The position numbers and the translations under genes were made by a program. A DNA stretch of 64,000 nucleotides from Alphaproteobacteria bacterium. Its GTDB lineage: Bacteria; Pseudomonadota; Alphaproteobacteria; Rs-D84. Below the pieces are notes generated by a model, which was not told the origin of the DNA, made no database searches, and worked only from the letters and a program-made list of their open reading frames with translations. Numbering within the stretch: position 1 is the first letter of the stretch; each line of letters begins with the position of its first letter. This document shows positions 3,909-57,501 of this stretch, in pieces. The stretch lies in the NCBI GenBank assembly GCA_031555055.1, contig JAVBUT010000002.1, positions 142,418-206,417 on the forward strand. The letters run 5' to 3'.

Positions 3909-4296
3909 TGGCTCTTAACAAATAACCACGGCGAAACATGCACTTGCGGTACGATCCGACGGATTTAGAGCTGGAATTTGGTGGAATCGACATCAGCGTG
4001 CGCTGGCCTACATCCTGATACTCGTTCGATTGGAACGTAACCCACAGACCGTCCCAGTCAGGCATCTGACCGCTTTGGTTCGGAGAAATCAGCTTTGCCA
4101 GTCTTGAACGCGGCATGTGCGCAGGCTTGGTTATTCCCAGACACGCCTTGTGATCGCGTACAAACTGTTCGGTGGTAACCGCTTCGTTTTCCCAATTCAG
4201 CACGGTCGCATTGTCGATAAGTCCGCTGTTCGGCGACGAACAGGCGGCAAGGAGTATGAAAAATGAAAAATGAAAAATGAAAAACGGTATTCTCAT
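3904..4296 (-). CDS. Hypothetical lipoprotein
   Basis: Lipobox LAAC after FFIFHFSFFIL; DHKAC and YRKCMFRRGY resemble small two-Cys lipoproteins. Confidence 0.75.
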   Translation of the reverse strand: MRIPFFIFHFSFFILLAACSSPNSGLIDNATVLNWENEAVTTEQFVRDHKACLGITKPAHMPRSRLAKLISPNQSGQMPDWDGLWVTFQSNEYQDVGQRTLMSIPPNSSSKSVGSYRKCMFRRGYLLRAS

Positions 4297-4367
4297 GCGG
4301 TTTATTATAATTTAATTGCTTTAACAGGGCAATAACTTTTATAATCAGTTATATAAAGGAAGAGAAT

Positions 4368-4682
4368 ATGGCGGACAGTGCTCAGAATTTCATAATGCTG
4401 GCGAACTTTTACAACCAGCTGGTCACGACAATGGCGGCGATATGCGTCCAAAAGGGCGGTATTGCGATCGAAAATTATGTCGGGCGCTTTTTTGCGGCGG
4501 ACGTTTTGGAATTCGTCGTAGAATACGGCAAAAGATTGCGCGCGCCGGCCGGATCGGAAATCGGTGCAATGGTGGCGCGTCTGGACGCGGAATTCGAAAA
4601 GGTCAAAAGCCTGACCACGCCGACGCAAAAGCCGATACACGAAATGACACTGGAAGAATTCGAAAAGGTTATGAACATATAA
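4368..4682 (+). CDS. Hypothetical protein; C-terminus resembles the end of MazG-like helical domains
   Basis: SD AAGGA upstream; ADVLEFVVEYGKRL...IHEMTLEEFEKV. Confidence 0.6.
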   Translation: MADSAQNFIMLANFYNQLVTTMAAICVQKGGIAIENYVGRFFAADVLEFVVEYGKRLRAPAGSEIGAMVARLDAEFEKVKSLTTPTQKPIHEMTLEEFEKVMNI

Positions 4683-4769
4683 TAAATGAAAAATTAAAAA
4701 TGAAAAATGAAAAATGAAAAGCAGCTCATTCGTCATTGTAAATTTTTCGCAGATATAAAAGGGAAAAGA

Positions 4770-6104
4770 ATGAAAACAATATTAAAGGCATTTTTCATTT
4801 TTAATTTTTTATTTTTCATTTGTGGTTGCGCCAAGATGAATCAGAACGATATGTCACAGTACGACACCGTCCAGGTCATAGACCAACTGGTGATCGATGA
4901 AAACTCTGTGCCGATCTTTCCGAAAAAAGCGGCGCTGACTACGGATACAGCGCGCCGGTTTTCAATCGAATTGCCAAAGCGATGCACAGTCGATTGGAAT
5001 AACCAGACAGTCTTGAGCGTTGTACCCGAAGAAAAAATCGAAATAGTTCGGCTGGATGTCGGCGATCCATTGCCGGATTTTAATGTGTCCGATTACGAAT
5101 TTACCAAAATGACGGTGACCGACGCGCTGGACAAATTATTGGACGGCACGAACATCGCGGTCGTCGAAGATGAAAAACTGGTCGAGAAAATCACAGGATC
5201 GATTCAATCCGGATCGCTTTCTGATTCTGTCGAACTGATCGCGAAAATGGGCAAGGCGTATTATTCCTATGACGATGATGCGCGCGAAATACATCTGTCG
5301 CATCGCGCAAAGTGGCTGATGAAAATGCCAAAGGACGAGAATATAATCATGGCGCTGCTGGATGCTATGCACGGCGCGGATATGCGCAACCTGTTGGTGG
5401 ACTGGCAGGACAAGACAGTTATATTCGAAGGTAATTACCAGACAGAACGCGAAGTCGCGAAAATCGTCAGCGACGTCGGATCAAAGAAATACATGATCGC
5501 GTGGGATATCGACGTATACCGCGTATATCCGCGCACGGACAATCCGATCATCTGGATGAACATATTGCCGGCGTTCGGCGACAAGAATGTCCGCATGTCG
5601 ATACCGGGCGTTGTCGGGCGCGCGCTGGTGGTAAGCCCGGAAATCAATACAAAAACGCTTCAGGAATTTTTAGGTCAACAGTCAAACGTTGTTCTGGTGT
5701 CCCAGGGGCGTTTTGTGATTCCGAACGGGTGGCAGTCGCGGTTTGACATCGGCCAATGCGGCAAGGAAGACCGCCTGGAAACTGATCTGACAATTGGGGC
5801 GACGGCGAAATATCTGGATTACGCGGGAAATAAAAAGATCGATTCCAAAATCGTGCTGCGCACGGGATCGGGCGAATTGTCTTCGTTTAAAATCCCAAGC
5901 AGCGTTGGTGACAACTATGTGATTGTCGGAATTCCGACACATTCGTTCGTAACCGATCCGGTCACATTAATATCACCGTTCGCGGAACTGGTCGTATTCA
6001 TGTCGCCGCGCATGATCGCGATTACGGACGCGCAAAACTATTCGCCGGCGCCACAAATGATGCCGCTGATGGGTGATGATCTGCGAAGCTATCTAGAAGA
6101 TTAA
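4770..6104 (+). CDS. Lipoprotein with secretin-like N-terminal domains (possible lipoprotein secretin)
   Basis: Lipobox ICGC; MTVTDALDKLLDGTNI...GSLSDSVELIAKMGKAYYSYD resembles secretin N0/STN domains; beta-rich C-half ending ELVVFMSPRMI, like the secretin ELVIFITPRII motif. Confidence 0.55.
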   Translation: MKTILKAFFIFNFLFFICGCAKMNQNDMSQYDTVQVIDQLVIDENSVPIFPKKAALTTDTARRFSIELPKRCTVDWNNQTVLSVVPEEKIEIVRLDVGDPLPDFNVSDYEFTKMTVTDALDKLLDGTNIAVVEDEKLVEKITGSIQSGSLSDSVELIAKMGKAYYSYDDDAREIHLSHRAKWLMKMPKDENIIMALLDAMHGADMRNLLVDWQDKTVIFEGNYQTEREVAKIVSDVGSKKYMIAWDIDVYRVYPRTDNPIIWMNILPAFGDKNVRMSIPGVVGRALVVSPEINTKTLQEFLGQQSNVVLVSQGRFVIPNGWQSRFDIGQCGKEDRLETDLTIGATAKYLDYAGNKKIDSKIVLRTGSGELSSFKIPSSVGDNYVIVGIPTHSFVTDPVTLISPFAELVVFMSPRMIAITDAQNYSPAPQMMPLMGDDLRSYLED

Positions 6105-6119
6105 TACAAGGATATTTTT

Positions 6120-7373
6120 ATGTTCAATAAGCTGGAAAGAAAAGTTGCGTTTCGTTATATGCGCGCCAAAGGCAAGGGATTCGGCAGTGTGATTTCATGG
6201 GTGTCACTGCTGGGGATCATGCTGGGGGTGGCGACGCTGATAGTTGTGATGTCGGTCATGGGCGGATTTCATGACACATTGCTGTCGCGTATTGTCGGAA
6301 TGAACGGACATGTTGTTGTTTATCACCAAGATGGCGCGATCACAGACTATGATTATTTGATCGACAAGATGAAGCAGAATAAAGTTGTGGCCGGCACGAT
6401 CACAGGCATCGTTCCGATCGCCGAAGGCCAGGTTATGGTGTCCGCCAACGGAAATAATTCCGGCGCGATGATCCGCGGAATCCGCATGGGTGATTTGGAA
6501 GCGAAAACAGTAACCGGCACGAAAATATACGGCAAAAAATTATCAGAGATCAAGGACGGCCAGCTGGTTATCGGAAACTCTCTGGCGCGCAATCTGCATG
6601 TTACAATGGGCGAGAGTGTATCGCTGATGTCGGCAAACGGTGGCACGCCGACGGCATTCGGCATGATGCCGCGCGTTATGTCTTATCCGGTCATGTCTTC
6701 GTTCTTTATGGGTATGTACGAATATGATTCCGGATATATATTCATGCCGCTGGCAACGGCCCAGAAATACCTGAACATCGGAAATTCCGTCACACACATC
6801 GATTTGTTCTTAAAGGATCCAGAGAAAACAAACGCCGTGCGTGAAGCATTGGTAACTTTGTTGCCGGATGGTTTTGTCGTGCGCGATTGGCGCGATCTGA
6901 ATCGCGGATTTGTCGGCGCGCTTCAGGTGGAAAGCAACGTTATGTTTCTGATATTAATGCTGATCGTTATCGTTGCGGCGTTTAATATCGTGTCATCATT
7001 GGTCATGCTGGTCAAAGATAAAAATAAAGACATTGCAGTACTGCGCACATTTGGCGTATCGCGCAGATCAATGATGAAAATATTTGTTTTGTCGGGCACA
7101 TCGATCGGTGCGATCGGCGCGTTCTTTGGAACGATTCTGGGTGTAATTATTGCGATTTATATTCAGCCAATACGAGAGTTTTTCCAGTGGATAACAGGCC
7201 GCGATCTGTTTCCGGCGGAACTGTATTATCTGTCGGAATTGCCGTCCAAACTGGTTGTCACAGATGTGATCGGAATTGCGTTGATAGCGATATTGCTGGC
7301 GTTCCTGGCGACGCTGTATCCGGCGTGGAAGGCCGCCAAGACCGATCCGGTTGAAGTGCTGCGGAACGAGTGA
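6120..7373 (+). CDS. lolE: Lipoprotein-releasing ABC transporter permease LolC/E
   Basis: SLLGIMLGVATLIVVMSVMGGF, AAFNIVSSLVMLVKDK..DIAVLRT.G, ATLYPAWKAAKTDPVEVLR. Confidence 0.95.
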   Translation: MFNKLERKVAFRYMRAKGKGFGSVISWVSLLGIMLGVATLIVVMSVMGGFHDTLLSRIVGMNGHVVVYHQDGAITDYDYLIDKMKQNKVVAGTITGIVPIAEGQVMVSANGNNSGAMIRGIRMGDLEAKTVTGTKIYGKKLSEIKDGQLVIGNSLARNLHVTMGESVSLMSANGGTPTAFGMMPRVMSYPVMSSFFMGMYEYDSGYIFMPLATAQKYLNIGNSVTHIDLFLKDPEKTNAVREALVTLLPDGFVVRDWRDLNRGFVGALQVESNVMFLILMLIVIVAAFNIVSSLVMLVKDKNKDIAVLRTFGVSRRSMMKIFVLSGTSIGAIGAFFGTILGVIIAIYIQPIREFFQWITGRDLFPAELYYLSELPSKLVVTDVIGIALIAILLAFLATLYPAWKAAKTDPVEVLRNE

Positions 7374-7374
7374 T

Positions 7375-7443
7375 AATTCCCCGCCTGGGGCGGGGTGGAT
7401 TTTTTGCAGCGCCTGTATGCGGGCAAAAAAGACGGGGCGGGTT
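7375..7443. repeat. Half copy of the CCCCTCC/GGAGGGG palindromic element family
   Basis: ttccccgcctggggcggggtggatttttt...aaaaaagacggggcggg has the same layout as one arm of the elements at 37041 and 42611. Confidence 0.65.
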
Positions 7444-7467
7444 ATAATATTGAAAAGGATATGCTGT

Positions 7468-7683
7468 ATGGAAGAAAGATGTTTAAAATGTTTAAAAGAA
7501 AGAAGCAGTCTGTGCGGCAATATCATTCAATCATATAAAATATATGTGCCGTTCTGGGCGACTGAGGCAAGAGGGCGCCATGCAGTGGACGTTTTGTGCT
7601 ATAAAGAAGACTGTGCACTACGGGTTTTAGGGCAACAACAAATTATTAATTTTGCAAATCAATTACAAAAAGAATCGAGATGA
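7468..7683 (+). CDS. Small hypothetical protein inserted between lolE and lolD
   Basis: TATAAT at 7443, SD AAAGGA, ATG 7468 (MEERCLKC...QKESR); stop overlaps lolD start (ATGA). Confidence 0.5.
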   Translation: MEERCLKCLKERSSLCGNIIQSYKIYVPFWATEARGRHAVDVLCYKEDCALRVLGQQQIINFANQLQKESR

Positions 7684-8393
7684 CAAACATACTAAAATCA
7701 TTATCCAAGGTTGAACGCAAGGGCGACGTTGTGCTGTCGGTGCGGGATATCAAAAAGACATTTATAGAGGGCGGGCAACCGTTGCATATCTTGCGTGGTG
7801 GCGGGTTTGATCTGAAACGCGGGGAAATCATCGCACTGGTCGGGCCGTCGGGTTGCGGCAAATCAACGTTGCTGCAATGCGTGGGATTATTGGATCGCCC
7901 CAGCTCTGGCAGTATTATCGTGTCCGGCACATCCGTCCAGAAAATGGATGACGAAATGCGTACATATATGCGTCGTCATAAAATCGGATTTGTATATCAG
8001 CGACATAATCTGTTGTCGGACTTTACGGCGATTGAAAATGTCACGCTGCCTATGCTGGCGAACAATATGGATGAAGACATTGCAACCGCACGTGCACGCG
8101 CACTGTTAAAATCCGCCAATGTCGCGCACCGCGCCACACACAGGCCGGCCGAGATGTCCGGTGGTGAACAACAACGTACCGCTGTTGCGCGCGCGCTGGC
8201 CAATGATCCGGATATACTGTTGGCGGACGAGCCGACCGGTTCACTGGACCCGGCGCATGCCGGCGCAGTGTTCGATTTGCTTCTTGATTTGGTGCGCAAA
8301 AATAAAATGGCAATGCTGTTTGTTACGCACGATATGAATCTGGCGGCGCGCGCGGATCGGACTATAACGATAAAAGACGGGATCGTTGAATAA
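7680..8393 (+). CDS. lolD: Lipoprotein-releasing ABC transporter ATPase LolD
   Basis: GPSGCGKS, GFVYQRHNLL, MSGGEQQR, LLADEPTGSLD; follows lolE. Confidence 0.93.
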   Translation: MTNILKSLSKVERKGDVVLSVRDIKKTFIEGGQPLHILRGGGFDLKRGEIIALVGPSGCGKSTLLQCVGLLDRPSSGSIIVSGTSVQKMDDEMRTYMRRHKIGFVYQRHNLLSDFTAIENVTLPMLANNMDEDIATARARALLKSANVAHRATHRPAEMSGGEQQRTAVARALANDPDILLADEPTGSLDPAHAGAVFDLLLDLVRKNKMAMLFVTHDMNLAARADRTITIKDGIVE

Positions 8394-8415
8394 TCCTAAA
8401 TACTTTTTTCTTTTT

Positions 8416-8435
8416 GGGGCGCATATTTGCGCCCT
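8416..8435. repeat. REP-like palindrome GGGGCGCATATTTGCGCCCT
   Basis: Same core as 18281-18303, 18370-18392, 52964-52985. Confidence 0.75.
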
Positions 8436-8515
8436 TGATTTTTGCAGAATGCTTGCTATGATGACCCCAGAGATATAAGGGGGAGCGCAGAGAGATGGAC
8501 ACAAAGGAAATCAAG

Positions 8516-8980
8516 ATGGCGGAAAATAACAAAGCAAAAACAGCGCAACCAAAAACTTCATCATGCTGGAAATGGTTCTGGACAATACTGACCATATTAA
8601 TCATATTTTTTATCGGTGTATTGGTCGGAAACTGGTGCACATCGTGCAAGTGTGTAAAAAAACAGGTGATGACGCCGTCGGAACGTATTCTGTACAGCTA
8701 TCATAATCGCGCCGATATGGTCGCGCCGATCGAAAAGCCAGTTGTCGTTGCGCCGGCCAAGGTCGCGCCAGCGCCGGTGCCAGCACCGGTGGTGTCCAAA
8801 CCGATCGTAAAGCCGACCCCCAGCGTACGCAAAACATACAGTAATGTAAAAAAGCATGCCGCACCGGCACCAAAGCCAGTTGTAAAGCCAGTGACATATG
8901 TTATAGAAGAAATAACCGAAACTTATCAGCCGTGTCACACCGCACCAACGGCTGTGATAGTTGAAAAATACAGATTTTAG
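8516..8980 (+). CDS. Single-pass membrane protein with Pro/Val/Lys-rich extension
   Basis: SD AAGGA; TM WFWTILTILIIFFIGVLVG; low-complexity PAPVPAPVVSKP. Confidence 0.7.
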   Translation: MAENNKAKTAQPKTSSCWKWFWTILTILIIFFIGVLVGNWCTSCKCVKKQVMTPSERILYSYHNRADMVAPIEKPVVVAPAKVAPAPVPAPVVSKPIVKPTPSVRKTYSNVKKHAAPAPKPVVKPVTYVIEEITETYQPCHTAPTAVIVEKYRF

Positions 8981-8991
8981 TCAAAATAAAC

Positions 8992-9208: not shown

Positions 9209-9211
9209 CTG

Positions 9212-21824: not shown

Positions 21825-22312
21825 TGACGCGCATTCTTGGGATTGATCCCGGGCTTGTACACACTGGCTGGGCGATAATTGAATCGCAGGGATCATCACG
21901 TAAATATATCGCGTCGGGCGTAATCCTGCCGCCTGTCAAAGACGGGCTGGCTGTGCGACTGGCGTTTATTTTTAAAGAAATCACAAAAATTTGTGAAATG
22001 TTCGCGCCGGACGAATGCGCGATCGAAATTACTTTTTCAAACACGAATGCAAAGACAACATTGCTGTTGGGGCATGCGCGCGCAGCGGCAATGGTTGCAG
22101 TCGGGAATCGCGATATTCCAATATTTGAGTATGAACCGAACAAAATAAAAAAAGCAATCAGCGCCGCCGGTCACGCGGACAAAGATGCGGTTGCGAAAAT
22201 GGTAAAAATATTCCTGCCTGTGGCGAATCCAAAGACCGCGGACGAATCTGATGCGATTGCGATCGCGCTGGCACACAGCAATATTAATAAAATACTAGCG
22301 TATAGCAAATAG
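21824..22312 (+). CDS. ruvC: Holliday junction resolvase RuvC
   Basis: ILGIDPG...TGW, AIE, LGHAR, EYEP..IKK, GHADK, DESDAIAIA. Confidence 0.96.
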   Translation: MTRILGIDPGLVHTGWAIIESQGSSRKYIASGVILPPVKDGLAVRLAFIFKEITKICEMFAPDECAIEITFSNTNAKTTLLLGHARAAAMVAVGNRDIPIFEYEPNKIKKAISAAGHADKDAVAKMVKIFLPVANPKTADESDAIAIALAHSNINKILAYSK

Positions 22313-23969: not shown

Positions 23970-24055
23970 TAGCGCATAGCATATAGCGCATAGCATATAG
24001 TTTATAGTGATATTGCTAATCCGCTAATCGCTATGCGCTATATGCTATGCGCTAA
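23969..24055. repeat. TAGCGCA heptamer array forming a perfect 26-bp inverted repeat
   Basis: TTAGCGCATAGCATATAGCGCATAGC (23969-23994) and its exact reverse complement (24030-24055). Confidence 0.92.
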
Positions 24056-24058
24056 TTG

Positions 24059-25180
24059 TTAATTTGGTTTCACATACGTATATTCTTTCGGCATGAATAT
24101 GTACATCTCGCCTTGGGCGTGCTGGCCTTGGGCGTATTTATACGCTTCATCGCCGGTGCCAAAGAATATGTCCGCACGCACCCATCCGCGTATGGCGGAC
24201 CCGGTGTCTTGGGCAATCATCAGTCTGCGGAACTTGCGCCCGTCGGACAGGTTTGTGTCGACGTATACAGGCAATCCCAAGGTATACAGGGAATCGTCCA
24301 TCGCGATACTGCGTATTTTTGACAACGGTGTCCCCAGTTTTCCGACAACATCCGGCGGCACGGAAACATAGAAATAAACATATCGCGGATTTCCGTAAAT
24401 AACTTCATTGGCCAGCGCCGGGTTTTTCTTTAGGTGCGACCAGACTGCCTCGCTTGAATATCCGTCGGCGGGGCGGATGCCTTTGGTTTTTAGCTGTTCG
24501 CCGATCGATTTAAAGGGCAGGTCGTTGACCGCCGCAAAGTTCAGTTTTACCAATGACCCGTCTTCTTTCAGTTTCAGCATACCCGACCCCTGAATCTGGA
24601 TATTCTGGACATCGACGATATTCGCCCAGTACAGGACTTTGCCAATCTGCTGGTTTACGATCGTTCTTTTTTCCACGCCCTTGTAATTGCGGCCGTCGGT
24701 CGGAATGCCCATCAGCGGTTCGTTGCATTCGGCGGTTTTTGTCTTGCACGCCGGTATGATCGGGGAATAATAGCCAGTGTATGTCCCCTTGGTCCCCAGG
24801 TCTTCGTTATATATCTTGTACGGCTGGAAATTTGATTCGAACCAAGCGCGGACGGTCGCATTGTCGGCGCTTGCCGACGGCAGCATGCGGCATTTTTCAT
24901 CGAACAGCGCCTTGTCCGGGATTACGCGGCCGACGTACTGTATCTTGGCCTTGCATGAATTTCGGAATGACTGGAGTGCGTATCGAACATCGTCATCGCG
25001 CCACCCCGGCAGTTCGGAATACGATGTCCGCCGCATGTTTCCGGGAATTGTCGCATTGTTTCCGGTCTGCGAATATCCGCCACCGGATGTTGTCGGCGAC
25101 CCCAGGTCGCAACCAGTAATTGACAAGGCGATTAAAATGAAAAATGAAAAATTAAGAATGAAAAGTAGTTTTTGTCGCAT
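24059..25180 (-). CDS. mltA: Membrane-bound lytic murein transglycosylase A
   Basis: Lipobox ITGC; TGYYSP, QIQGSG, NPRYVYF, RSIAMD, AQDTGSAIRG..RADIFFG.G. Confidence 0.93.
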   Translation of the reverse strand: MRQKLLFILNFSFFILIALSITGCDLGSPTTSGGGYSQTGNNATIPGNMRRTSYSELPGWRDDDVRYALQSFRNSCKAKIQYVGRVIPDKALFDEKCRMLPSASADNATVRAWFESNFQPYKIYNEDLGTKGTYTGYYSPIIPACKTKTAECNEPLMGIPTDGRNYKGVEKRTIVNQQIGKVLYWANIVDVQNIQIQGSGMLKLKEDGSLVKLNFAAVNDLPFKSIGEQLKTKGIRPADGYSSEAVWSHLKKNPALANEVIYGNPRYVYFYVSVPPDVVGKLGTPLSKIRSIAMDDSLYTLGLPVYVDTNLSDGRKFRRLMIAQDTGSAIRGWVRADIFFGTGDEAYKYAQGQHAQGEMYIFMPKEYTYVKPN

Positions 25181-25222: not shown

Positions 25223-25247
25223 ATTTTTCATTCTTCATTTTTCATTT
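25223..25247. repeat. (TTTTCAT)-type array upstream of mltA, complementary to the array in the mltA signal sequence (25131-25164)
   Basis: atttttcattcttcatttttcattt versus aaatgaaaaatgaaaaattaagaatgaaaa. Confidence 0.8.
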
Positions 25248-25334
25248 GATTTATTTTTCAAGCGTTTCCCTTGAAAAATAAATCCTATACCCTATAATAT
25301 CATAAAATGGCGCGCAAAAAAAGGAGCAAGACAT

Positions 25335-48146: not shown

Positions 48147-48205
48147 CGTAATTCGTGAATCGTGATTCGTAATTCGGATCACGCGTCACGAATCACGAGT
48201 CACGG
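48147..48205. repeat. (CGTGATT)n / (AATCACG)n inverted heptamer array between yajC and secD
   Basis: cgtaatt cgtgaat cgtgatt cgtaatt cg gatcacg cgtcacg aatcacg agtcacg. Confidence 0.85.
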
Positions 48206-49807: not shown

Positions 49808-50671
49808 ATGAAATTAAGTTTTATGAAATATCGCAAATTATCGTACTGGATTTCCGGTATCTTGGTGGCGCTGTCTGTTGTGTCACTGATGACCAAGGGA
49901 TTAAATTACGGGATTGACTTTGCGGGCGGCATATCGATGGAGGTTACGCCGAAATCTGCCGAATACACAATCGATAAAATGCGTTCGGATTTGAAAGAAT
50001 TCGGTCCGGAATTACAGGCGGTCGATAATCATTCTATCTTGGTGCGCGTTGGCTTGCCCAAGGGCGCGACCGACGAACAGCAGAACAACCGCGTTCGCGA
50101 AATCAAAGATATTCTGGGTGAAAAGGTTAGTTATTCCCAAGTTCAGATCGTTGGACCGAAAATCGGTGGCGAACTGGTGCGTGGCGGTATCATGGCGGTA
50201 TTGCTGTCGTTTGTTCTTATGTCGGTTTATATCTGGATACGTTATCGCGGCGGATACGCGGTTGGATCGTTTGTGTCGCTGTTGTTGGACTTTGTTCTGA
50301 TGTTCGGATTCTTTTCGATTGCGGGACTGGAATTCAATCAGACGTCAATCGCGGTGATCCTGATGGGTATCGGATATTCGATCAACGACAAGGTTGTGAA
50401 CTATGACCGCATAGAAGAAAATATCAAAAAATATCACAAAATGCCCATGACCGATCTGATCGATCTGTCGATAAACGAAATGATGCGCAGAACGATCATG
50501 ACCAGCATTTCCACCATTTTGGCGATGATTGCTTTGTTCTTCTTTGGTGGCGTGATGCTGCGCGATTTTTCGATCGCGATGACGTTTGCGGTCATTATGG
50601 GAACACTGACCAGCATTTATATTTCTAACGTCGTGCTGTATCACTTTAACCTGCGCGAATTGGACCATTAA
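49808..50671 (+). CDS. secF: Protein translocase subunit SecF
   Basis: GLNYGIDFAGG, VGPKIGGEL, IGYSINDKVV.YDRI.EN, RTIMTS. Confidence 0.96.
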   Translation: MKLSFMKYRKLSYWISGILVALSVVSLMTKGLNYGIDFAGGISMEVTPKSAEYTIDKMRSDLKEFGPELQAVDNHSILVRVGLPKGATDEQQNNRVREIKDILGEKVSYSQVQIVGPKIGGELVRGGIMAVLLSFVLMSVYIWIRYRGGYAVGSFVSLLLDFVLMFGFFSIAGLEFNQTSIAVILMGIGYSINDKVVNYDRIEENIKKYHKMPMTDLIDLSINEMMRRTIMTSISTILAMIALFFFGGVMLRDFSIAMTFAVIMGTLTSIYISNVVLYHFNLRELDH

Positions 50672-50805
50672 AATGAAAAATGAAAAATGAAGAATGAAAA
50701 AATATTTTGTCTTCATTTTATCATTACTTAGAAAAAAGCAAGGAAGGTAAATCATGAGAGCGATATTGAAATCATTTTTCATTATTCATTTTTCATTTTT
50801 CATTT
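50670..50805. repeat. (AAAATGA)n array after secF and complementary (TTTTCAT)n in the next gene's signal sequence
   Basis: aaatgaaaaatgaaaaatgaagaatgaaaaa (50671-50701) versus tttttcattattcatttttcatttttcattt (50775-50805). Confidence 0.85.
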
Positions 50806-52259
50806 GTATTGCAAATGCCGCAGAGCTGTTCGATCCAAAAGAACCGGTCCAGGATGGGATCAACGTATTCGAAACATCTGCGGTATTTTCTGATATTTAT
50901 ACCAAACTGGACAAGATCGCGTGGGGTGGCAAAGACATCAGCGTCGCGATCGAATCTTTGGAAAAAATAAATTCGAACGCCCATATTGCGGCGACCGACG
51001 AACGCGTGGTTCTGGTATGGCATGATGCGATTGTCGCTAACTATCCGAAACCTGCGAACCGCGACTGGGACGCATACGGCCAGATTACGACTGCGCTGGT
51101 TCTGAAGTTGCGCGGGCTGGACCCGGCGCTGAACCAAATGTCGGCCAGCGAAATGTACCAAACCGTTGTGGATGCGCTGATGCGTGGCGTTGATGAGAAT
51201 GGACGGTATATATATTCAAAACAGGCCGAAATTTTGGAAGACGGCCGCATACTGACTTCGGTGGGTCTTGACGGTGGTCGTGATGAACGGGAAAACTTTC
51301 GCGTCATGGGGGTTTACAAAGATTCGCCGGCCGATACTTCCGGTGTGCGCGCGGGCGACATAATAACCAAAATCAATGGAAAACGAATCGCGGAAATGTC
51401 CGACGACCAGATCGGCGGCGTGCTGTCGGGATTTAATTCCGGAACATTGAAACTGACGGTCTTGACGCCTGGCGGTGAAAAGCAAATCGTTCTGCGCCGC
51501 GCGACAGTTGTGCTGGCGGATGCGGATATAATATATCGTTCCGGTGAAAGCACCGGTATTTTGGAAATCGTCGTTCATCGCGTTTCCGACAACGCTGTGG
51601 CTATTGTCAATGAAGCCCTGGCAAAGCACGCGTCTGCGTCCGGGATAATTCTGGACCTGCGCGCGGCGACCGGAAATGACGAGCGCGCGGCGGCAAAGCT
51701 GGCCGGGCTGTTTGTCGGTGCGGTGCCGGTTATGCGGATTGTTGAAACGGCGCGCGCGGAAACAGAAATCGTGCCCGGCGGCCGGGCCGTCACGGACGCG
51801 CCTATGGTCGTGCTGATGTCAAATACCACGCGCGGAACGGCCGAAGCGATCGTTGGCGCCATGTATGAAAATAAACGCGGAATATTGGTCGGAACACCGA
51901 CAGCCGGATCGGCGCGTATTGCGACGACAATTGATTTGGAAAATGGCGGCGCGCTGGAACTGTTGAACAAATCATTAAAGACGGGTAACGGAAATCAAAT
52001 TGACGGGCGCGGGATATTTCCGCTGGTATGTTTGTCCAACATACGTTCGGATTCGCAACAGAACGCATTTTTCTTGAATGTTATAAATAACGATTTTCGC
52101 GCGCGCGATTTCAACAATGACATGGAAACCCCGGTGGAATCTATCCGCAAGGGTTGTCCTGTTATCACCAGCGGCACGGACGAAGACAATTTATCGGCGG
52201 CGGTCGCAGTAAAAATCCTGACCGATGAAAAGGTTTACAGCAAGTTGATTAATGAGTGA
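50754..52259 (+). CDS. S41A carboxyl-terminal protease (CtpA)-like protein with PDZ domain; catalytic residues substituted
   Basis: Signal peptide; PDZ SPADTSGVRAGDIITKING; IILDLR; PMVVL...TRGTAE; VGTPTAGSA; IDGRGIFP. Confidence 0.85.
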   Translation: MRAILKSFFIIHFSFFICIANAAELFDPKEPVQDGINVFETSAVFSDIYTKLDKIAWGGKDISVAIESLEKINSNAHIAATDERVVLVWHDAIVANYPKPANRDWDAYGQITTALVLKLRGLDPALNQMSASEMYQTVVDALMRGVDENGRYIYSKQAEILEDGRILTSVGLDGGRDERENFRVMGVYKDSPADTSGVRAGDIITKINGKRIAEMSDDQIGGVLSGFNSGTLKLTVLTPGGEKQIVLRRATVVLADADIIYRSGESTGILEIVVHRVSDNAVAIVNEALAKHASASGIILDLRAATGNDERAAAKLAGLFVGAVPVMRIVETARAETEIVPGGRAVTDAPMVVLMSNTTRGTAEAIVGAMYENKRGILVGTPTAGSARIATTIDLENGGALELLNKSLKTGNGNQIDGRGIFPLVCLSNIRSDSQQNAFFLNVINNDFRARDFNNDMETPVESIRKGCPVITSGTDEDNLSAAVAVKILTDEKVYSKLINE

Positions 52260-52282
52260 TTAGTGTTAGCGGTTAGTGGAGA

Positions 52283-52957
52283 ATGGTTATGTTTTTACGC
52301 AAAGATAATACGATCAAATGGAAGGAAATTGGCATCGCGGCCACGATAACTGTTGCGCTGTGTGTGGCGGGCGCATTGTGGTTTGATAAACCGATGTTTA
52401 TGTTTATGCGCGAATTCGATTGGCATGTATGGGGTCTGCTGGACCAGTTGTTCGCGACCAAGGTATGGCTGTTTGTATCCGCGGTCGCGGCGGTATTGAT
52501 CGCCGGCCGTATCGCGGCCATAAACAAGGAGCGCCGGTTTCAACTGATTCTGAAAAATTTTATTGCAGAATTCAAAGCGCGTGCAAAATCCAATCCAGGA
52601 TTTTTGGTGTTCGCGTCCGTCCTGTGTGCCAGCATTGTCGGCGGAATATTAAAGTACGGCCTGGGGCGCGCCCGTCCGATATTTTACGAGGCGCTGGGGC
52701 ATACGGGTTTTTATCCATTTACACCGGAATGGGCATTTAATTCGATGCCGTCGGGGCATGCGACTGCGTCGTTTGCGGGTCTGGTAATGATCGGTATGCT
52801 GTTTCCAAAGATCAAGTGGGCTACATGGACGGGTGCCATTATAATCGCGCTGTCACGTGTGTGCTATGGCGCGCATTGGCCGTCGGATGTAATACTTGGG
52901 GCATTTATCGGTATGGTCACGGCTGACTTGGTAAAGAGTTGGTTTTATAAGAAGTAA
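52283..52957 (+). CDS. PAP2 family membrane phosphatase (lipid A phosphatase-like)
   Basis: K..LGRARP, SMPSGH, SRV..GAHWPSDV..G. Confidence 0.92.
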   Translation: MVMFLRKDNTIKWKEIGIAATITVALCVAGALWFDKPMFMFMREFDWHVWGLLDQLFATKVWLFVSAVAAVLIAGRIAAINKERRFQLILKNFIAEFKARAKSNPGFLVFASVLCASIVGGILKYGLGRARPIFYEALGHTGFYPFTPEWAFNSMPSGHATASFAGLVMIGMLFPKIKWATWTGAIIIALSRVCYGAHWPSDVILGAFIGMVTADLVKSWFYKK

Positions 52958-52963
52958 ATATCT

Positions 52964-52985
52964 GGGCGCAAATATGCGCCCCTAC
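52964..52985. repeat. GTAG-type REP-like palindrome (inverted)
   Basis: gggcgcaaatatgcgcccctac. Confidence 0.75.
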
Positions 52986-53000
52986 AAATAAAGGCATAAT

Positions 53001-53579
53001 ATGAAAAACGCGATAATTTTACATGGTACGGATGATACACGCGAGGATGTGTTTGCTGCACCGAACAGCTTGTCTAATATGCATTGGTTCCCATGGCTGC
53101 AATGGGAATTGATAAAACAGGGCATTTTAACCCAAACGCCGGAAATGCCAAATCCATGGGATGATCAGGTAAACTATGATGAATGGGCGATGGTGTTCGA
53201 ACAATTCCCAATCAATCAATATAGTGTATTAATAGGACATTCGTGGGGTGGGGGCTTTTTATTAAAATATTTATCCCAGTATCCGGAAATAAGGATAGAT
53301 CAATTGGTTTTGGTTGCGCCATCTATTAATACCGAAAAGTGTGGTGATTTTATGAAGGGGTGGAATGGTGATACGAAACTGGCCGATCGCATTGGGCATA
53401 TAGATATCTTATATTCGGTGGATGATAATAAAGAAATAATAAACAGCGTGAAACAAATTATAAAGTTCTTTGACGTTGCAAAAAATTTTACAGTTCATAA
53501 ATTTGAAAACAAAGGACATTTTATACAAAGCAGAATAGGCAAAGAATTCCCGGAACTGTTGGCGGTGATTAACCATTAG
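53001..53579 (+). CDS. RBBP9/YdeN family alpha/beta hydrolase
   Basis: IILHG, HWFPWL, MPNP, LIGHSWGG, LVAP, S.DD, GHF, FPELL. Confidence 0.88.
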   Translation: MKNAIILHGTDDTREDVFAAPNSLSNMHWFPWLQWELIKQGILTQTPEMPNPWDDQVNYDEWAMVFEQFPINQYSVLIGHSWGGGFLLKYLSQYPEIRIDQLVLVAPSINTEKCGDFMKGWNGDTKLADRIGHIDILYSVDDNKEIINSVKQIIKFFDVAKNFTVHKFENKGHFIQSRIGKEFPELLAVINH

Positions 53580-53665
53580 CGCATAGCGCATAGCGTATAG
53601 CGATTAGCGGTTCTGCTCTGACACTATGCGCTAAGCGCTATCTCGCTATTTGCTATGCGCTAATT
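53577..53665. repeat. TAGCGCA / TGCGCTA inverted heptamer array
   Basis: tagcgca tagcgca tagcgta tagcgat tagc ... tgcgcta agcgcta tctcgcta tttgcta tgcgcta. Confidence 0.88.
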
Positions 53666-53695
53666 GTTAATTCACTTTCACCTACACCTTTACAT

Positions 53696-53711
53696 GTTTT
53701 TATGATATAAT
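53696..53711 (+). promoter_or_regulatory. Extended -10 promoter 6 nt before ftsK ATG (probable leaderless transcript)
   Basis: TTTTTATGATATAAT-TCGCGC-ATG with no SD. Confidence 0.6.
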
Positions 53712-53717
53712 TCGCGC

Positions 53718-55955
53718 ATGGCAAATAATGCAAAGTTTCTGCCGGAACGTGTGTCCGGTGCCTTGAAAAGTCTTGCCCTGCGTACGCTGGGGCTGGTGTT
53801 GCTGGCGCTGGGGGTGTGGTTTACGTTCGCGCTGTTTTTTCAAAATCCATATTTGAACGGTTTCGCCGCATCCAGCAATTTCGGCAACCAGAATCTGATT
53901 GATAATATCGTCGGATTTGTCCGGTACGGTATCGGCTTTGTGCCGGCACTATTCTTGTTTTTATGCATTGCGCGCACAGGATTGTCGTTCATGATGAACT
54001 GGTCTGATGAACGCGCGCCGGAATACAACGCATTGCGCGGGTTTATCGCGATATGTGCGGGCGCCGCCGGTTTCGGCGCGATATGGCCGGGAAACACGCT
54101 GGGCGGAATGGCGGGCAGCATTGTTGCGTCTGACATCGGATCGTTCGCAGGTCCGTGGACGTTTGTATTCGGAATTGCATTTTTATTAATATTCTTTTTA
54201 ATGGCCGGAAAGTTATTAAATATCAGCTGGCGCGACCTGCAGGCCTTGGCGCGCGCTATATACAGGTCGGTCCGCTGGATACTATCGGTGTTCCATCTGG
54301 TAAAAATGGCAGAGCCAGAAGAGGATAATTCCGACGAAGAAGAATACGAAGACGAAGAATCAAACGAAAAAGAAAAGCCAGCCCGCGCGGCGCGAAAAAA
54401 AGCCGTGCCTGTCACAAAAATAAAATCGAAAAAATCCAAAACATCCGAACACGAACACGAATACGAATTGCCTGATCCGGAATTTTTGGAAAAATCCGTA
54501 TTTGGCAAACATGTGATCACGCCGGAGTTGAAGCGCAACGGTTCCGCAATGGAGGCGCACTTTGAAGAATTCGGCGTATACGGCCATGTCGTCGGGATCA
54601 AGCCGGGGCCGGTTGTCACATTGTATGAATTCGAACCTGATTCCGGTGTGCGCATTGCCAAGGTTACCGATACCGTCAAGGATATGACCCGCGCCATGGC
54701 GGCGGAAAACATCCGTATTGCGCATATTCCGCGCACAAACTATATCGGTGTTGAAATGGTTAATTTGAATCGCCAGCCAGTGCGGTTCCAATCATTGATT
54801 ACAAACTCTGCGTTTGTGGAGTCAAAATACAAGATACCGCTGGCGCTGGGGGTTGATATCGGCGGACACCCGATGTATTTCGATCTGGCCAAGATGCCGC
54901 ATTTGCTGATCGCGGGGCGCACCGGATCGGGTAAGTCCGTATTTGTCCAGTCCATTATAATGTCGATCATGTATCACTTTACGCCTGATCGGTGCAAGCT
55001 GATGGTTGTGGACCCCAAGGCTGTGGACTTTACATTATGGGATAATATCCCGCACTTGATCACGCCGGTTCTGACGGACGCAAATTCGTCTGTGAATGCG
55101 CTGAAATGGTCTGTGCGCGATATGGAAGAAAGATACAAAAAACTGAAAGACCTGGGCGTTCAGAATATCGAAGGATATAACGACGCGGTTGCAAAGCTGC
55201 GCGCGGCCGGCAAAAAAATAACCAAACAGGTCGCCGTCGGCACCGATCCGGAAACGGGCGCGTTGGAATTCGAAGAACAAGAAGTCGACTTGTCCGACAT
55301 GCCGTACATGGTCATTATTATTGACGAGGGGGCCGACCTGATGTCTGTTGCACGTAAAGAAGTCGAGGCATGCGTCCAGCGTCTGGCGCAAAAGGCGCGC
55401 GCGGCGGGCATACACTTGGTCGCGGCGACCCAGCGCCCGGACACAACCGTCATTACCGGTGTTATCAAGGCGAATTTCCCGACACGCATATCATTCCAGG
55501 CGCGGTCAAATATCGATTCTATGACGACGCTTGGCGAAAAGGGCGCGGAACAATTATCGGCGTTCGGCGATATGCTGTTCAGCGAGGCGGGCAGGGTGCC
55601 GGTCCGAATTCACGGCGCGCTGATCGAAAATGTTGAAATCAACCGCGTGGCGGATTTCTTGCGTGCACAGGGCGAACCGGAATACGCCGAAGGTGTTGCG
55701 GACGGCGATGGCGGCGATTTTGGCGGCGCGGGTGCGACGCCGATACCGGGCATGCCGGTGAGTAAGGGCGACAAGGATTCCGACCTGTACGAACAGGCAA
55801 AGCAATACGTTGTCCGTGACAAGAAACCCACGATTTCATACATCCAGCGCAGACTTGGCGTCGGTTATAACAAGGCCGCCGGATTTATGGAACGGATGGA
55901 AACCGAAGGCGTTGTATCGGCCCCGGATGCGAATAACAAACGACAGATATTGTAA
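53718..55955 (+). CDS. ftsK: DNA translocase FtsK
   Basis: N-terminal TMs, PGPVVTLYE, DLAKMPHLLIAGRTGSGKSV, IIDE, RLAQKARAAGIHL..ATQRP, gamma domain SYIQRRLGVGYNKAA. Confidence 0.97.
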   Translation: MANNAKFLPERVSGALKSLALRTLGLVLLALGVWFTFALFFQNPYLNGFAASSNFGNQNLIDNIVGFVRYGIGFVPALFLFLCIARTGLSFMMNWSDERAPEYNALRGFIAICAGAAGFGAIWPGNTLGGMAGSIVASDIGSFAGPWTFVFGIAFLLIFFLMAGKLLNISWRDLQALARAIYRSVRWILSVFHLVKMAEPEEDNSDEEEYEDEESNEKEKPARAARKKAVPVTKIKSKKSKTSEHEHEYELPDPEFLEKSVFGKHVITPELKRNGSAMEAHFEEFGVYGHVVGIKPGPVVTLYEFEPDSGVRIAKVTDTVKDMTRAMAAENIRIAHIPRTNYIGVEMVNLNRQPVRFQSLITNSAFVESKYKIPLALGVDIGGHPMYFDLAKMPHLLIAGRTGSGKSVFVQSIIMSIMYHFTPDRCKLMVVDPKAVDFTLWDNIPHLITPVLTDANSSVNALKWSVRDMEERYKKLKDLGVQNIEGYNDAVAKLRAAGKKITKQVAVGTDPETGALEFEEQEVDLSDMPYMVIIIDEGADLMSVARKEVEACVQRLAQKARAAGIHLVAATQRPDTTVITGVIKANFPTRISFQARSNIDSMTTLGEKGAEQLSAFGDMLFSEAGRVPVRIHGALIENVEINRVADFLRAQGEPEYAEGVADGDGGDFGGAGATPIPGMPVSKGDKDSDLYEQAKQYVVRDKKPTISYIQRRLGVGYNKAAGFMERMETEGVVSAPDANNKRQIL

Positions 55956-55977
55956 AAACGCCCCACGGGGCGTTTTT
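55954..55977 (+). terminator. Intrinsic terminator
   Basis: aaaaacgcccc ac ggggcgttttt. Confidence 0.75.
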
Positions 55978-55980
55978 ATT

Positions 55981-56080
55981 AATCACTAGTCATTAGTCAA
56001 TAGTCGATAGTAGGAGTGCATATTTGCGCCCCTTATATCTGGGCGTATGCAATACGCCCCTACTAATGACTATTTACTAA
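55981..56080. repeat. Inverted REP pair nested inside inverted TAGTCA heptamer arms
   Basis: ctagtca ttagtca atagtcg ata gtaggagtgcatatttgcgccc ... gggcgtatgcaatacgcccctac taa tgacta tttacta. Confidence 0.8.
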
Positions 56081-56144
56081 AAAAGCCTTTTGTATAAAAG
56101 GCTTTTTTATGATATAATTTAGTCATAAAAAGGAGTTTTATAAC

Positions 56145-57338
56145 ATGAAAAAGCAAGTATCTTTATTCTTTCTGGCGGCCGCGATATTCGGTGTTGCGCC
56201 GGCCGTTGCCGCAACGAATTCCGGCACGTATGGCGCATCCAGCGCGGATTTGACCGGTGCGCCGGCCACGCGCGCACGCACGTCTGTGAACTATGAAAAG
56301 TATGAAACGCGCAGTTCCAGCAAGACATACACAACCAAAGATTCCGATAAAAATCTGTATTACAGCCAACCTTCATCGCGCAGCAGCGCATACAACAATA
56401 TGGGCACGACACGCACAGAATCTTCGCGCACAACGCGCAGCGAATCGTCACGCACATCGGCAAAACGCAAATACTATCTGGCGCACCCGTTTTTCCAACC
56501 GCTGGAAGGTAAGGTAGGGTCTGTGACGGACCTTTCCTATGCGTCCAGTTCTTATAATGTGGCGTTGACACCGCTGGCGGGATTTACAATCAGCGATGAT
56601 GACGCAAAGTGGGACATGAAGCGCTTTTCTGTAAAAGAAGATTTGTCGTACGGTATTACGGATCGCTTGGCGGTTGTCGGAATGCTGCAGTATGACAGCT
56701 CTACATACACAATGGACTGGTCCACCGCGCCGGATGACACGATGAAGGATTCCGGGATCAACCTGTATGGTTTGGGTCTGCAGTGGCGCTTTACCGACAG
56801 TGCGGAATGGATCGCGACACTGTCCGGATATTTCCAACACCAAACGGATATCGCGAACACATTTATCGCGGACCTGAAAGCAGGGTACAAGGTCAACACG
56901 TCGACATTCTATGGCTTGCTGCGCGGATGGCTGGTTGATTTCGAAGGTAATTCATATGGAAACGGAATCGATGACGGCAACGGCACGGCGATATTTATTG
57001 CATACGATACCGATGTCAGCACAGCATTCTATGTCGAAGGCGGTCTGGGGGTATTCACTGTCTTGGGCGAAGATTGGACATTGAATCTAGAAGCAGTGTT
57101 CGGCAACTATGACTGGCATAACCAGGCGTCGCTAAAAGGCGCGATCGGATGGCAGCCAGGCGAATCGTTCGCACTGAACCTGTATGCTAAAACAGCGATA
57201 TACGACAGCGCCGACGGCCAGGATTTGGGCTTTTGGTGGCTTGACCCGTCATTGCCGGATTGGGAACACCGCGGAACCGCCCACATCAGCAACTATGCCG
57301 AATGGACGATTGGCGCCCAGGCGATATTGTATTTCTAA
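56145..57338 (+). CDS. Outer-membrane beta-barrel protein with Ser/Thr/Arg-rich N-terminal extension
   Basis: Signal peptide, amphipathic beta strands (LSYGITDRLAV, LGLQWRF), C-terminal aromatic F. Confidence 0.78.
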   Translation: MKKQVSLFFLAAAIFGVAPAVAATNSGTYGASSADLTGAPATRARTSVNYEKYETRSSSKTYTTKDSDKNLYYSQPSSRSSAYNNMGTTRTESSRTTRSESSRTSAKRKYYLAHPFFQPLEGKVGSVTDLSYASSSYNVALTPLAGFTISDDDAKWDMKRFSVKEDLSYGITDRLAVVGMLQYDSSTYTMDWSTAPDDTMKDSGINLYGLGLQWRFTDSAEWIATLSGYFQHQTDIANTFIADLKAGYKVNTSTFYGLLRGWLVDFEGNSYGNGIDDGNGTAIFIAYDTDVSTAFYVEGGLGVFTVLGEDWTLNLEAVFGNYDWHNQASLKGAIGWQPGESFALNLYAKTAIYDSADGQDLGFWWLDPSLPDWEHRGTAHISNYAEWTIGAQAILYF

Positions 57339-57357
57339 TCGGCAAAGCCGATTAGAA

Positions 57358-57501
57358 ATAATGAAAAATTAAAAATGATATATGAAAAATAATTTTTCAT
57401 ATATCATTGGTGGTTTTTCACGGATCATATATACAAATATAAGATTTTGATATGAAGAAACTATTAACTATATTTTTCATTTTTAATTTTTCATTTTTCA
57501 T
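57358..57501. repeat. (AAAATGA)-type array upstream and complementary (TTTTCAT)n in signal sequence of the 57452 gene
   Basis: atgaaaaattaaaaatga (57361-57378) versus tcatttttaatttttcat (57477-57494), an exact reverse complement. Confidence 0.85.

Follow-up and report, generated by a model that had tools for sequence, protein, structure and literature searches.

Heptanucleotide repeat arrays encode predicted signal-peptide cores of envelope proteins in an uncultured alphaproteobacterium

Short repeats at the 5' ends of bacterial genes have been described before. In Neisseria, the leader-peptide coding regions of the phase-variable Opa surface proteins carry CTCTT pentamers, and the opa genes are dispensable, paralogous antigen genes with long, visibly variable tracts. 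Heptanucleotide repeats include the STRR of cyanobacteria. Direct repeats of the heptamer TAACTGA have been reported from marine Beggiatoaceae and cyanobacteria (MacGregor 2015, PMC4679880), and repeats of GGGAATC from Xanthomonas and Nostoc (Rehm 2015, PMC4692102). Palindromic repeats of the MITE (miniature inverted-repeat transposable element) type that lie in frame within genes comprise the Rickettsia RPEs, ERIC, YPAL/RU-2 and Correia/NEMIS; the part of that source covered here also describes a Yersinia YPAL that forms part of a predicted signal peptide at one locus, YPO1552, and Correia elements that are co-transcribed and whose hairpins are cut by RNase III (Delihas 2008, PMC2229807). Here we describe a heptanucleotide family, (TTTTCAT)n, that encodes the hydrophobic cores of predicted signal peptides in a reduced-genome gut alphaproteobacterium of the Rs-D84 lineage. 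It was found in a stretch of 64,000 nt (hereafter the window; G000:C8:142418-206417), where G000 is the source assembly GCA_031555055.1 and C8 and similar names are its contigs, C8 being JAVBUT010000002.1.

The family resembles the TAACTGA-type heptamers, as described in the covered part of that report, in its tandem 7-nt units, two to six of them to a set, its enrichment in particular lineages and its concentration near start codons, and likewise one of its orientations has stops in three frames and is confined to intergenic DNA or gene ends. The TAACTGA sets are, in the same part of the report, upstream direct repeats that are mostly untranslated, with one inverted repeat among 170 sets, and the term 'signal peptide' occurs there zero times (PMC4679880). 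In G000, unlike this, about 29 housekeeping envelope proteins have a signal-peptide core translated from the open orientation, which has an inverted partner. Inverted-repeat DNA tolerated within coding sequence is a trait common to the G000 arrays and the RPE/MITE types. The latter, as far as the covered text describes them, are unit-length elements with a conserved interior that are inserted whole and give rise to signal peptides sporadically, whereas in G000 only the arms are conserved, the interior is ancestral at the two loci tested, the replacement is of constant length, and the scale is about one exported protein in six, BamA and LptD included. The opa genes are similar in having a tandem unit that is not a multiple of three within signal-peptide coding sequence, where a change of copy number shifts the frame, and one G000 gene is broken in this way; the G000 tracts differ in being short and uniform, in lying in unrelated and largely essential housekeeping genes, and in having an upstream complement. 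No report of repeat arrays that encode housekeeping-envelope signal peptides genome-wide and have upstream complements was found in full-text searches of the literature, supplementary files not being covered. Start-adjacent heptamers, one MITE-derived partial signal peptide and leader repeats in antigen genes are known.

The G000 assembly (887,658 bp in 10 contigs, approximately 47% GC) is 77% complete. The closest sampled genomes are those of uncultured gut Alphaproteobacteria of 0.7–1.1 Mb, several of which are labelled Candidatus Enterousia or Rickettsiales bacterium. One of the relatives matched, KS320-82, has been placed in Enterousia, order Rs-D84, in a genome paper whose covered text, without its supplementary files, makes no mention of repeats (PMC12306168).

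Array-coded signal peptides in the window and the genome

The first-pass annotation of the window had proposed that the hydrophobic cores (h-regions) of five unrelated exported proteins come from one heptamer array, and the N-termini of all five open reading frames (ORFs) read as it had claimed. Also as claimed, a complementary tract lies on the sense strand upstream of four of the five genes, ending 49, 44, 53 and 77 nt before the ATG, and nt 57361-57378 can be read directly as the exact reverse complement of nt 57477-57494. A search of the window with TTTTCATTTTTCAT, allowing at most one mismatch, gave 23 matches against 0.16 expected, and none of 100 shuffled sequences reached 23; Tandem Repeats Finder (TRF) returned nine arrays of 4.1–5.3 units each. 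Head-to-tail 7-nt units occur above chance and genome-wide, which makes this a heptanucleotide repeat family, and AAAAATG is the most frequent word among the 107 period-7 runs of G000.

The coding properties of the unit are simple. As seven is not a multiple of three, three units pass through all three frames, and TTT TCA TTT TTC ATT TTT CAT is read as the cyclic peptide F-S-F-F-I-F-H in any entry frame, with no stop. The pyrimidine orientation, lacking a stop and having a hydrophobic reading, can thus replace the hydrophobic core of a signal peptide. The complement, ATG AAA AAT GAA AAA TGA, contains ATG and TGA in every frame, and because of its stops the purine orientation is confined to intergenic positions. 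Other abundant heptamers of G000 either have a cyclic stop on both strands or encode polar residues on the open strand, so that only the TTTTCAT family is found in signal peptides.

The whole assembly contains 60 TTTTCAT-type arrays, and these encode the signal peptides of 29 genes, 28 intact and one frameshifted, so that the repeat is seen across the genome in the role proposed for it in the window, that of a generator of signal sequences. The intact N-termini have the pattern M-(K/R/N)-x-I-(I/L)-K-(S/A)-FFI(F/L/I)(H/N/Y)FSFFI and then a c-region of the ordinary AXA or lipobox kind. Arrays usually consist of about four units (28 nt), are short and uniform in most genes, and lie within approximately codons 4–20 of the 28 ORFs. 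They begin 10–25 nt past the ATG in 21 of 25 tabulated genes (13 or 22 nt in 16), and the reading phase relative to the ATG is identical in 21 of the 25. Pfam points to housekeeping envelope functions among the 28: BamA (Omp85 and five POTRA domains), LptD, TolB, a BamB-like PQQ_2 lipoprotein, a SurA_N-like protein, MltA, an SLT_2 transglycosylase, an S11 D,D-carboxypeptidase, an M23 peptidase, an S41 protease, an OmpA-family lipoprotein, a DUF2147 protein and a CagX/VirB9-like protein. About twelve have no Pfam family. The proteins are indeed unrelated, as their mature parts gave no non-self BLASTp match at E ≤ 1e-3. The array type makes up about one in six of the predicted exported proteins, a rough figure because the counts depend on a strict home-made signal-peptide rule, by which 162 of 881 greedily called ORFs were flagged and 7 of 471 internal decoys passed. 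This rule replaced an earlier, looser one that had flagged 269 of the 881 ORFs and was over-inclusive. A different use of the units is seen in the exported protein at C8:120954-121629, in which ATGAAAA units supply the start codon and the charged n-region; the likely N-terminus is MKNEK, followed by an ordinary hydrophobic core.

The coordinates of the five window loci are given in Table 1. The lipoprotein gene 4770-6104 is conserved in all 25 genomes searched. Gene 3904-4296 on the minus strand is the one without an upstream arm, and a TATAAT motif ends 7 nt 5' of its ATG. At the junction of secF and the S41 peptidase gene, the two arms form 34 Watson-Crick pairs, with three other mismatches, over 37 positions, and the secF-side arm is followed by a partial sense copy (approximately nt 50709-50724) that allows an alternative local hairpin. 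The 3' half of the arm upstream of gene 57452-58168 (nt 57374-57389) similarly forms a perfect 16-bp local hairpin with nt 57393-57408. The neighbouring genes 56145-57338 and 58269-59135 have ordinary signal peptides.

Table 1. Features of the array-coded loci (window coordinates, except in the last row, which refers to contig C8)
Feature	Position (nt)	Strand	Basis
Predicted lipoprotein, 130 aa, no Pfam family, array-coded signal peptide MRIPFFIFHFSFFILLAAC	3904..4296	-	ORF + Pfam
Signal-peptide arm, four perfect TTTTCAT units, encodes h-region of gene 3904-4296	4256..4283	-	repeat matches, TRF
5' arm (AAATGAA)n, 5.3 units, 1-3 nt past stop of co-directional ORF 4368-4682	4684..4720	+	TRF
Lipoprotein, 444 aa, no Pfam family, signal peptide MKTILKAFFIFNFLFFICGC	4770..6104	+	ORF + Pfam
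Signal-peptide arm TTTTCAT TTTTAAT TTTTTAT TTTTCAT, pairs with 4684-4720 (free energy of folding, dG, -31.4)	4789..4821	+	TRF, fold
MltA lytic transglycosylase lipoprotein, Pfam MltA + 3D, signal peptide MRQKLLFILNFSFFILIALSITGC	24059..25180	-	ORF + Pfam
mltA signal-peptide arm, encodes LFILNFSFFI	25134..25164	-	repeat matches, TRF
mltA 5' arm, ATGAAAA-type units, 44 nt 5' of ATG, in divergent secB-mltA spacer	25223..25247	-	repeat matches
5' arm (AAAATGA)n, 4.6 units, begins at TAA stop of secF	50670..50701	+	TRF
S41 (C-terminal processing) peptidase with PDZ, signal peptide MRAILKSFFIIHFSFFICIANA	50754..52259	+	ORF + Pfam
S41 signal-peptide arm, 4.9 units, pairs with 50670-50701	50772..50805	+	TRF, fold
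5' arm, 22 nt past stop of porin-like gene 56145-57338	57355..57390	+	TRF
Exported protein, 238 aa, no Pfam family, signal peptide MKKLLTIFFIFNFSFFICSARA	57452..58168	+	ORF + Pfam
Signal-peptide arm of gene 57452-58168, 4.3 units	57472..57501	+	TRF
Nine TRF arrays	4256-4284, 4684-4720, 4789-4821, 25134-25164, 25223-25260, 50670-50701, 50772-50805, 57355-57390, 57472-57501		TRF
Full 4-unit upstream arm of C8:5100 gene, upstream of conserved extended -10	C8:4994-5021

Several other features of the window were recorded. A 593-aa ORF on the minus strand (nt 1322-3103), beside an FtsQ-like ORF (nt 3138-3848), appears by eye to have an FtsA-like N-terminal half and a ribulose-phosphate-3-epimerase-like C-terminal half. 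Short-loop hairpins with heptamer arms of other sequence lie at nt 23970-24056 (ATAGCGC/CGCTATG), directly after the mltA stop, at nt 48147-48204 (CGTAATT/TCACGAG) and at nt 53575-53662 (TAGCGCA/CTATGCG).

Relatives and proposed copying at the DNA level

Matches to a 21-mer of the array number 73 in G000, six in a second genome (G021), one in a third (G019) and none in the other 38 relatives, which include four of the same genus; the TTTTCAT family is lineage-specific. Orthologues would, on the first-pass proposal, have different signal sequences, and those of the S41 peptidase, TolB, MltA, the 4770-6104 lipoprotein and the VirB9-like protein are written in ordinary codons or, in several relatives, by a different 7- or 8-nt repeat with an upstream complement of its own. 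Each of the 20 S41 orthologues examined has an N-terminal signal peptide of differing sequence, and in 19 of them the conserved mature part aligns from about residue 20–24 of the query. TolB orthologues were taken from metagenome-assembled genomes of the Ca. Enterousia type (80 loci), and all 79 that could be scored have an ordinary signal peptide ending right before ELKVDI, of 21–23 aa as read by eye and typically MLKKIL...PARA; the G000 signal peptide, of 23 aa, is array-written, MLKNIIKSFFILHFSFFIGIAHA being followed by EIKVDI. An inverted repeat with a score of at least 14, which exceeds every shuffle and was taken as an arm pair, was found at tolB in none of the 79 orthologues and, in a separate scoring of 23 loci, in G000 only. 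In MltA, the 4770-6104 lipoprotein and the VirB9-like protein, the orthologues have a signal peptide at the same place with the mature part right after it. The unchanged length of the signal peptide (TolB, S41, VirB9-like) indicates that the core was replaced and nothing was added. Two observations that might have spoken against the proposal were not made: no alternative start lies past the array, the mature part following it directly, and what the orthologues keep is a signal peptide, not an FFI..FSFFI peptide written in non-repetitive codons.

Other repeat words occupy the same positions in relatives. At the S41 junction, arm pairs are found in six of 22 loci with a different unit each time (AAGGAAT, AGTAATC/AGTAAAC, AGTAGAC, AGAGAAT and others). 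The junction of the 4770-6104 lipoprotein has arm pairs in three of 24 genomes (TTTTCAT, TTGTTCC and GCTCTTT), with two more carrying arrays that lack a complement, and at the MltA junction a pair is present in one of 24, G000 itself. In genome G016 an octamer family, (TTCTCTTA)n, was matched 122 times; its reading in at least 11 exported proteins, which include orthologues of four array genes from G000, is FSYSLILLFS. The corresponding module consists of an TAAGAGAA array, a GC palindrome of about 21 nt, TAAGAGAA again, a conserved spacer of about 60 nt that is readable as a Lys/Arg-rich n-region, and an TTCTCTTA array; it is shared by at least six loci (e.g., L036, L049, L058, L045, L047 and L031), and at L036 and L049 the spacer is identical though the genes differ. 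Genome G023 has an (ATTCCTT)n family with 48 matches, and G021 has two intergenic copies with common arms, terminator and spacer. To judge from these sequences, the architecture recurs across relatives and the repeat word is species-specific.

The best reading of these results, to which we assign a probability of about 0.5, is that a repeat family acting at the DNA level overwrites the cores of signal peptides, is copied locally in inverted orientation, undergoes slippage, and is tolerated. TTTTCAT arrays would have spread through the 5' ends of exported-protein genes, being homogenised and seeded between loci by gene-conversion-like copying. The upstream arms would arise by template-switch inverted duplication, a direction that is seen at one locus and presumed for the rest, and copy number would change through slippage. 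Such changes would be tolerated where signal peptides accept nearly any hydrophobic core and where the nucleotides right after an upstream stop are neutral. The encoded peptide would act as an ordinary Sec or lipoprotein signal, and any RNA stem would be a by-product with possible side effects on polycistronic mRNAs.

Arms within a pair are more alike than arms across loci (mean score 24.2 versus 21.2, permutation p = 0.0006). A perfect inverted repeat of 40 nt (C7:28720/28825) extends 10 nt past the array into Leu-Ile-Pro codons of the VirB9-like signal peptide; same-genus orthologues have Ile/Met-Pro at the same site and an intergenic spacer of about 26 nt, against 97 nt in G000. Since the Ile-Pro codons are common to these orthologues, the upstream copy at C7:28720 is the derived one and was templated from the coding arm. 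Codons are identical between loci, the variants seen change amino acids (F→L/I, H→N/Y and S→L), and the unit variants TCTTCAT and TATTCAT also occur in non-coding upstream arms; together with the shared phase, this suggests that DNA was copied, not that selection converged on one peptide. On the same grounds of identical codons, amino-acid-changing variants and their presence in non-coding arms, peptide selection was ruled out as the cause of the uniformity. Loss of mismatch repair was also considered as a cause and rejected, as MutS is present; MutL and SbcCD were not searched for.

Upstream arms, RNA folding and transcripts

Inverted pairs with arms less than approximately 200 nt apart number 19, of which 17 span the starts of intact array-coded genes, one that of the broken gene, and one is purely intergenic; two further pairs belong to BamA and to a gene with its ATG at C8:16899. 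An upstream arm is thus present in about 20 of the 29 array-coded genes, 0–111 nt before the ATG. With 11 units (77 nt), one array of the purely intergenic pair (C8:260926-261146) is longer than any other in the family; 112 nt separate it from its inverted partner of four units. The interval between these arms holds a further palindrome, of 26 nt, a terminator-like GC hairpin lies on either side of the pair, and no gene starts inside. The remaining 9 of the 29 genes have no arm, from which it follows that the coding array is the self-sufficient part. At LptD, C8:9709 and C9:10330 the genes overlap or have a 2-nt stop/start junction, which leaves no room for one.

Some observations weigh against a history of DNA copying alone. 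The gap between arm and ATG is regular, 44–66 nt in 10 of 17 tabulated loci, and in 12 of the 17 the arm begins at -4 to +22 nt relative to the stop codon of the preceding co-directional gene, a stop that the arm itself provides in some cases. Of approximately 24 upstream-type arms, about 19 adjoin one of the 28 array-coded genes; with about 880 junctions in all, the hypergeometric P is roughly 5e-28. This tight association and regular geometry could be explained by purifying selection on neutral insertions and equally by function. Over the 524 aligned positions of 18 pairs, 487 are Watson-Crick, 16 G-U, 6 A-C and 15 other, so that mismatches favour G-U on the sense strand over A-C, at borderline significance (two-sided p = 0.05); a G-U excess is expected of an RNA stem, and coding constraint on the 3' arm can mimic it. 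For the seeding of some 29 unrelated genes with the same 28-mer and a similar n-region, I[IL]K[SA], there is also no known mechanism; we infer gene conversion.

The arms could also act as a stem-loop in cis, the purine arm at the upstream stop pairing with the signal-peptide arm to form a 20–38-bp, A-U-rich stem around the ribosome-binding site (RBS) and AUG. The first-pass annotation had suggested such an mRNA fold. All four window leaders are predicted to fold arm to arm (dG -31.4, -23.4, -37.2 and -38.9 kcal/mol; z-scores -4.4, -2.8, -5.1 and -7.0), and genome-wide 15 of 17 pairs do so with at least 15 bp and a mean minimum free energy of -34 kcal/mol. In 11 of 17 spacers a partial sense copy gives an alternative local hairpin (the 5' part alone folding at -10 kcal/mol or below). 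The stem could tune envelope synthesis as a substrate of RNase III, which is encoded in G000, in the manner of Correia/NEMIS elements, as a thermolabile structure, or through coupling to upstream translation, where a ribosome terminating on the upstream gene would melt the 5' arm. The 12 arms that abut a stop make co-transcription plausible, the secF-S41 spacer in relatives is operon-like (approximately 15–45 nt), the mismatches lean towards G-U, and complementarity recurs between species where the unit sequence does not. On the other hand, the further suggestion that the fold may couple to translation initiation was not upheld, as the Shine-Dalgarno (SD) sequence and AUG lie in a 45–110-nt loop of the predicted folds and are not occluded; the genes without an arm also count against the stem, and local inverted copying would yield complementarity without selection.

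The transcripts themselves bear on the same question. At tolB, a promoter of the form TTG(c/a)TT-17-TATAAAAT, followed by an GGAAAGGAA-type SD, is kept in most of the family orthologues aligned, and in G000 the arms enclose this block, the 5' one occupying -112 to -84. The C8:5100 gene has an extended -10 block, TGTGATAAAAT-N(10-12)-AGAGAGA-ATG, that is kept in at least seven relatives and is likewise situated between the arms. At three of 17 loci a GC hairpin with a T-run stands directly 5' of the arm, and four array-coded genes, two of them paired, have TATAAT 6–7 nt before the ATG, a distance so short that it suggests leaderless mRNAs. A conserved promoter between the arms, or a terminator before them, probably places the upstream arm outside the nearest transcript there, and two terminator-preceded pairs are still 29/30 and 32/32 Watson-Crick. 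The concern that the upstream arrays lie outside the transcripts is therefore probably justified at tolB, C8:5100 and three to four further loci with a terminator or TATAAT; co-transcription is plausible at the 12 of 17 where the arm abuts a co-directional stop. As arms remain paired where the 5' arm is probably untranscribed, what is common to all pairs is an inverted repeat in the DNA and not co-transcription. Consensus scans for promoters and terminators at the four window loci gave counts at the level of shuffled sequences, and so lend the stem no support. A polycistronic stem may form at the 12 loci whose arm abuts a stop; as a general explanation we regard the RNA stem as unlikely. Quite unlikely, in our view, is its more far-reaching form, in which mirror arrays would make up a regulator-free, genome-wide cis module that co-controls about 20 envelope-biogenesis genes post-transcriptionally, among them BamA, TolB, SurA-like, MltA and protease genes, for instance via RNase III cutting of read-through mRNAs, via temperature or via coupling to translation upstream, and is re-invented in each species with its own 7- or 8-nt word. 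If true, such a module would represent covariation on the scale of entire arrays and a novel route to a regulon.

Further upstream of tolB (C2, approximately nt 22210-22300), seven of eight family relatives aligned share, at the nucleotide level, a conserved non-coding stretch about 60 nt long (gactatatca.tgt...cttgtcaatacatttgt...gtaat). It lies 5' of the variable region that holds the G000 arm and could be a second promoter or a small RNA.

Pairs that bracket a promoter at tolB and C8:5100, and are kept even where the 5' arm is probably untranscribed, might also be taken for operators, that is, inverted sites for a DNA-looping regulator of an envelope regulon. The centre-to-centre spacing of approximately 70–140 bp would suit this, by analogy with gal OE/OI. 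A different unit in each species, including an octamer, would however require rapid co-evolution of the regulator; 9 of 29 genes lack one of the sites, and no candidate regulator was found, none having been searched for. This arrangement is considered highly improbable. Inverted repeats that flank conserved promoters at two loci also brought an inverton to mind; there is no evidence for one, and the essential targets argue against it.

A further alternative is that a non-autonomous, MITE-like cassette, with terminal inverted repeats built of arrays and carrying an RBS, start codon and signal peptide, inserts as a unit. The module of G016 conserved over at least six loci and the two intergenic copies of G021 resemble such an element, terminal inverted repeats are present in 18 pairs, and the secF-S41 and VirB8-like/VirB9-like spacers are 50–70 nt longer in G000 than in relatives. 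The Yersinia precedent, a MITE contributing part of a signal peptide (PMC2229807), can be added, in so far as the covered text describes it, as can the presence of a RAYT-like Y1 transposase ORF. The G000 spacers, though, are not conserved between copies and have only a short TTTTTC motif in common, and the arms at tolB and C8:5100 enclose ancestral DNA, its promoter, SD, ATG and n-region being alignable with relatives. Signal peptides of unchanged length imply replacement and not insertion, arrays occur without upstream arms, no target-site duplications were seen (none were searched for), and the Y1_Tnp match is weak (24.9 bits, cut-off 23) and not adjacent to an array. A cassette that moves as a unit is thus improbable, and overwriting at the DNA level remains the preferred reading. 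The ORF concerned (C8:258794-259327, 177 aa) has, besides its weak IS200/RAYT-like match, an H-L-H motif and a 24-nt GC-rich palindrome upstream (L229 766-824), and could mobilise a GC-rich palindromic repeat family of G000. A RAYT/REP origin of the arrays was rejected, as this ORF is not linked to them.

Frameshifts, variation and significance

Slippage by single units, with frameshifting and phase variation as its outcome, had been predicted in the first-pass annotation. Among the 29 genes, one lies out of frame, the break being at a 2-unit array. This gene (C8:5104-7207) encodes a 701-aa, Cys-rich exported protein that has no Pfam family and was matched in all 15 family genomes. The conserved ATG at C8:5100 leads through the array into a dead end of 60 codons, and the 701-codon body is in another frame. 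A change in copy number of a 7-nt unit would give just such an offset, 1 nt modulo 3, and the position of the break exactly at the array suggests that unit indels break such genes. Of the 14 orthologous loci read, most retain an uninterrupted signal peptide; one contig begins within the gene, and two loci allowed no judgement. The state in G000 may be a pseudogene, an off state or an assembly error. The frameshifting part of the prediction is therefore borne out by one gene, while adaptive switching is unlikely for BamA, LptD and TolB, which are essential or near-essential in Gram-negative bacteria.

That the arrays are contingency loci, slippage switches turning envelope genes on and off by 7-nt frameshifts, would accord with a unit length that is not a multiple of three and with the out-of-frame gene at C8:5104-7207, most of whose orthologues are intact. 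The targets, however, include BamA, LptD, TolB, an S11 carboxypeptidase and MltA and are not of the dispensable surface or antigen kind, and the arrays are short and uniform (about four units, 28 nt). No rows with 7-nt indels, no strand-changing joints and no transcript ends were seen at two loci in public sequence; this was checked in Logan contigs only, from a DNA run that may be the source and from two metatranscriptome runs belonging to a single study, in which unitigs break at arrays and rare variants are invisible. Contingency loci are hardly credible here. Contigs from these runs that join arms over short unrelated spacers belong to other loci or organisms, and a scan for close strains gave 67% identity as the nearest metagenome match to the S41 gene. 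Elsewhere in the window, nt 59217-59240 showed a very high summed contig depth (approximately 3,600, DNA run) with 1-nt length variants at 59233 and 59236, which probably marks a repeat common to many other organisms or loci.

Signal-peptide sequence is a classic example of loose constraint combined with essential function. In G000, about one-sixth of the exported proteins, core machinery of outer-membrane assembly included, have had the hydrophobic core of their signal peptide rewritten by one repeat since the split from the nearest sampled relatives, and sister lineages display the same rewriting with other words. The family offers a concrete, datable case in which targeting signals would evolve in concert through repeat dynamics and not through selection on the peptide. 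As natural 'designed' signal peptides, the array-coded N-termini may serve as a test of what Sec and Lsp require, and in uncultured bacteria with small genomes, gene callers and signal-peptide predictors face such repeat-coded N-termini systematically. Should the paired arms turn out to be functional, they would define a regulon by a repeat instead of by a regulator.

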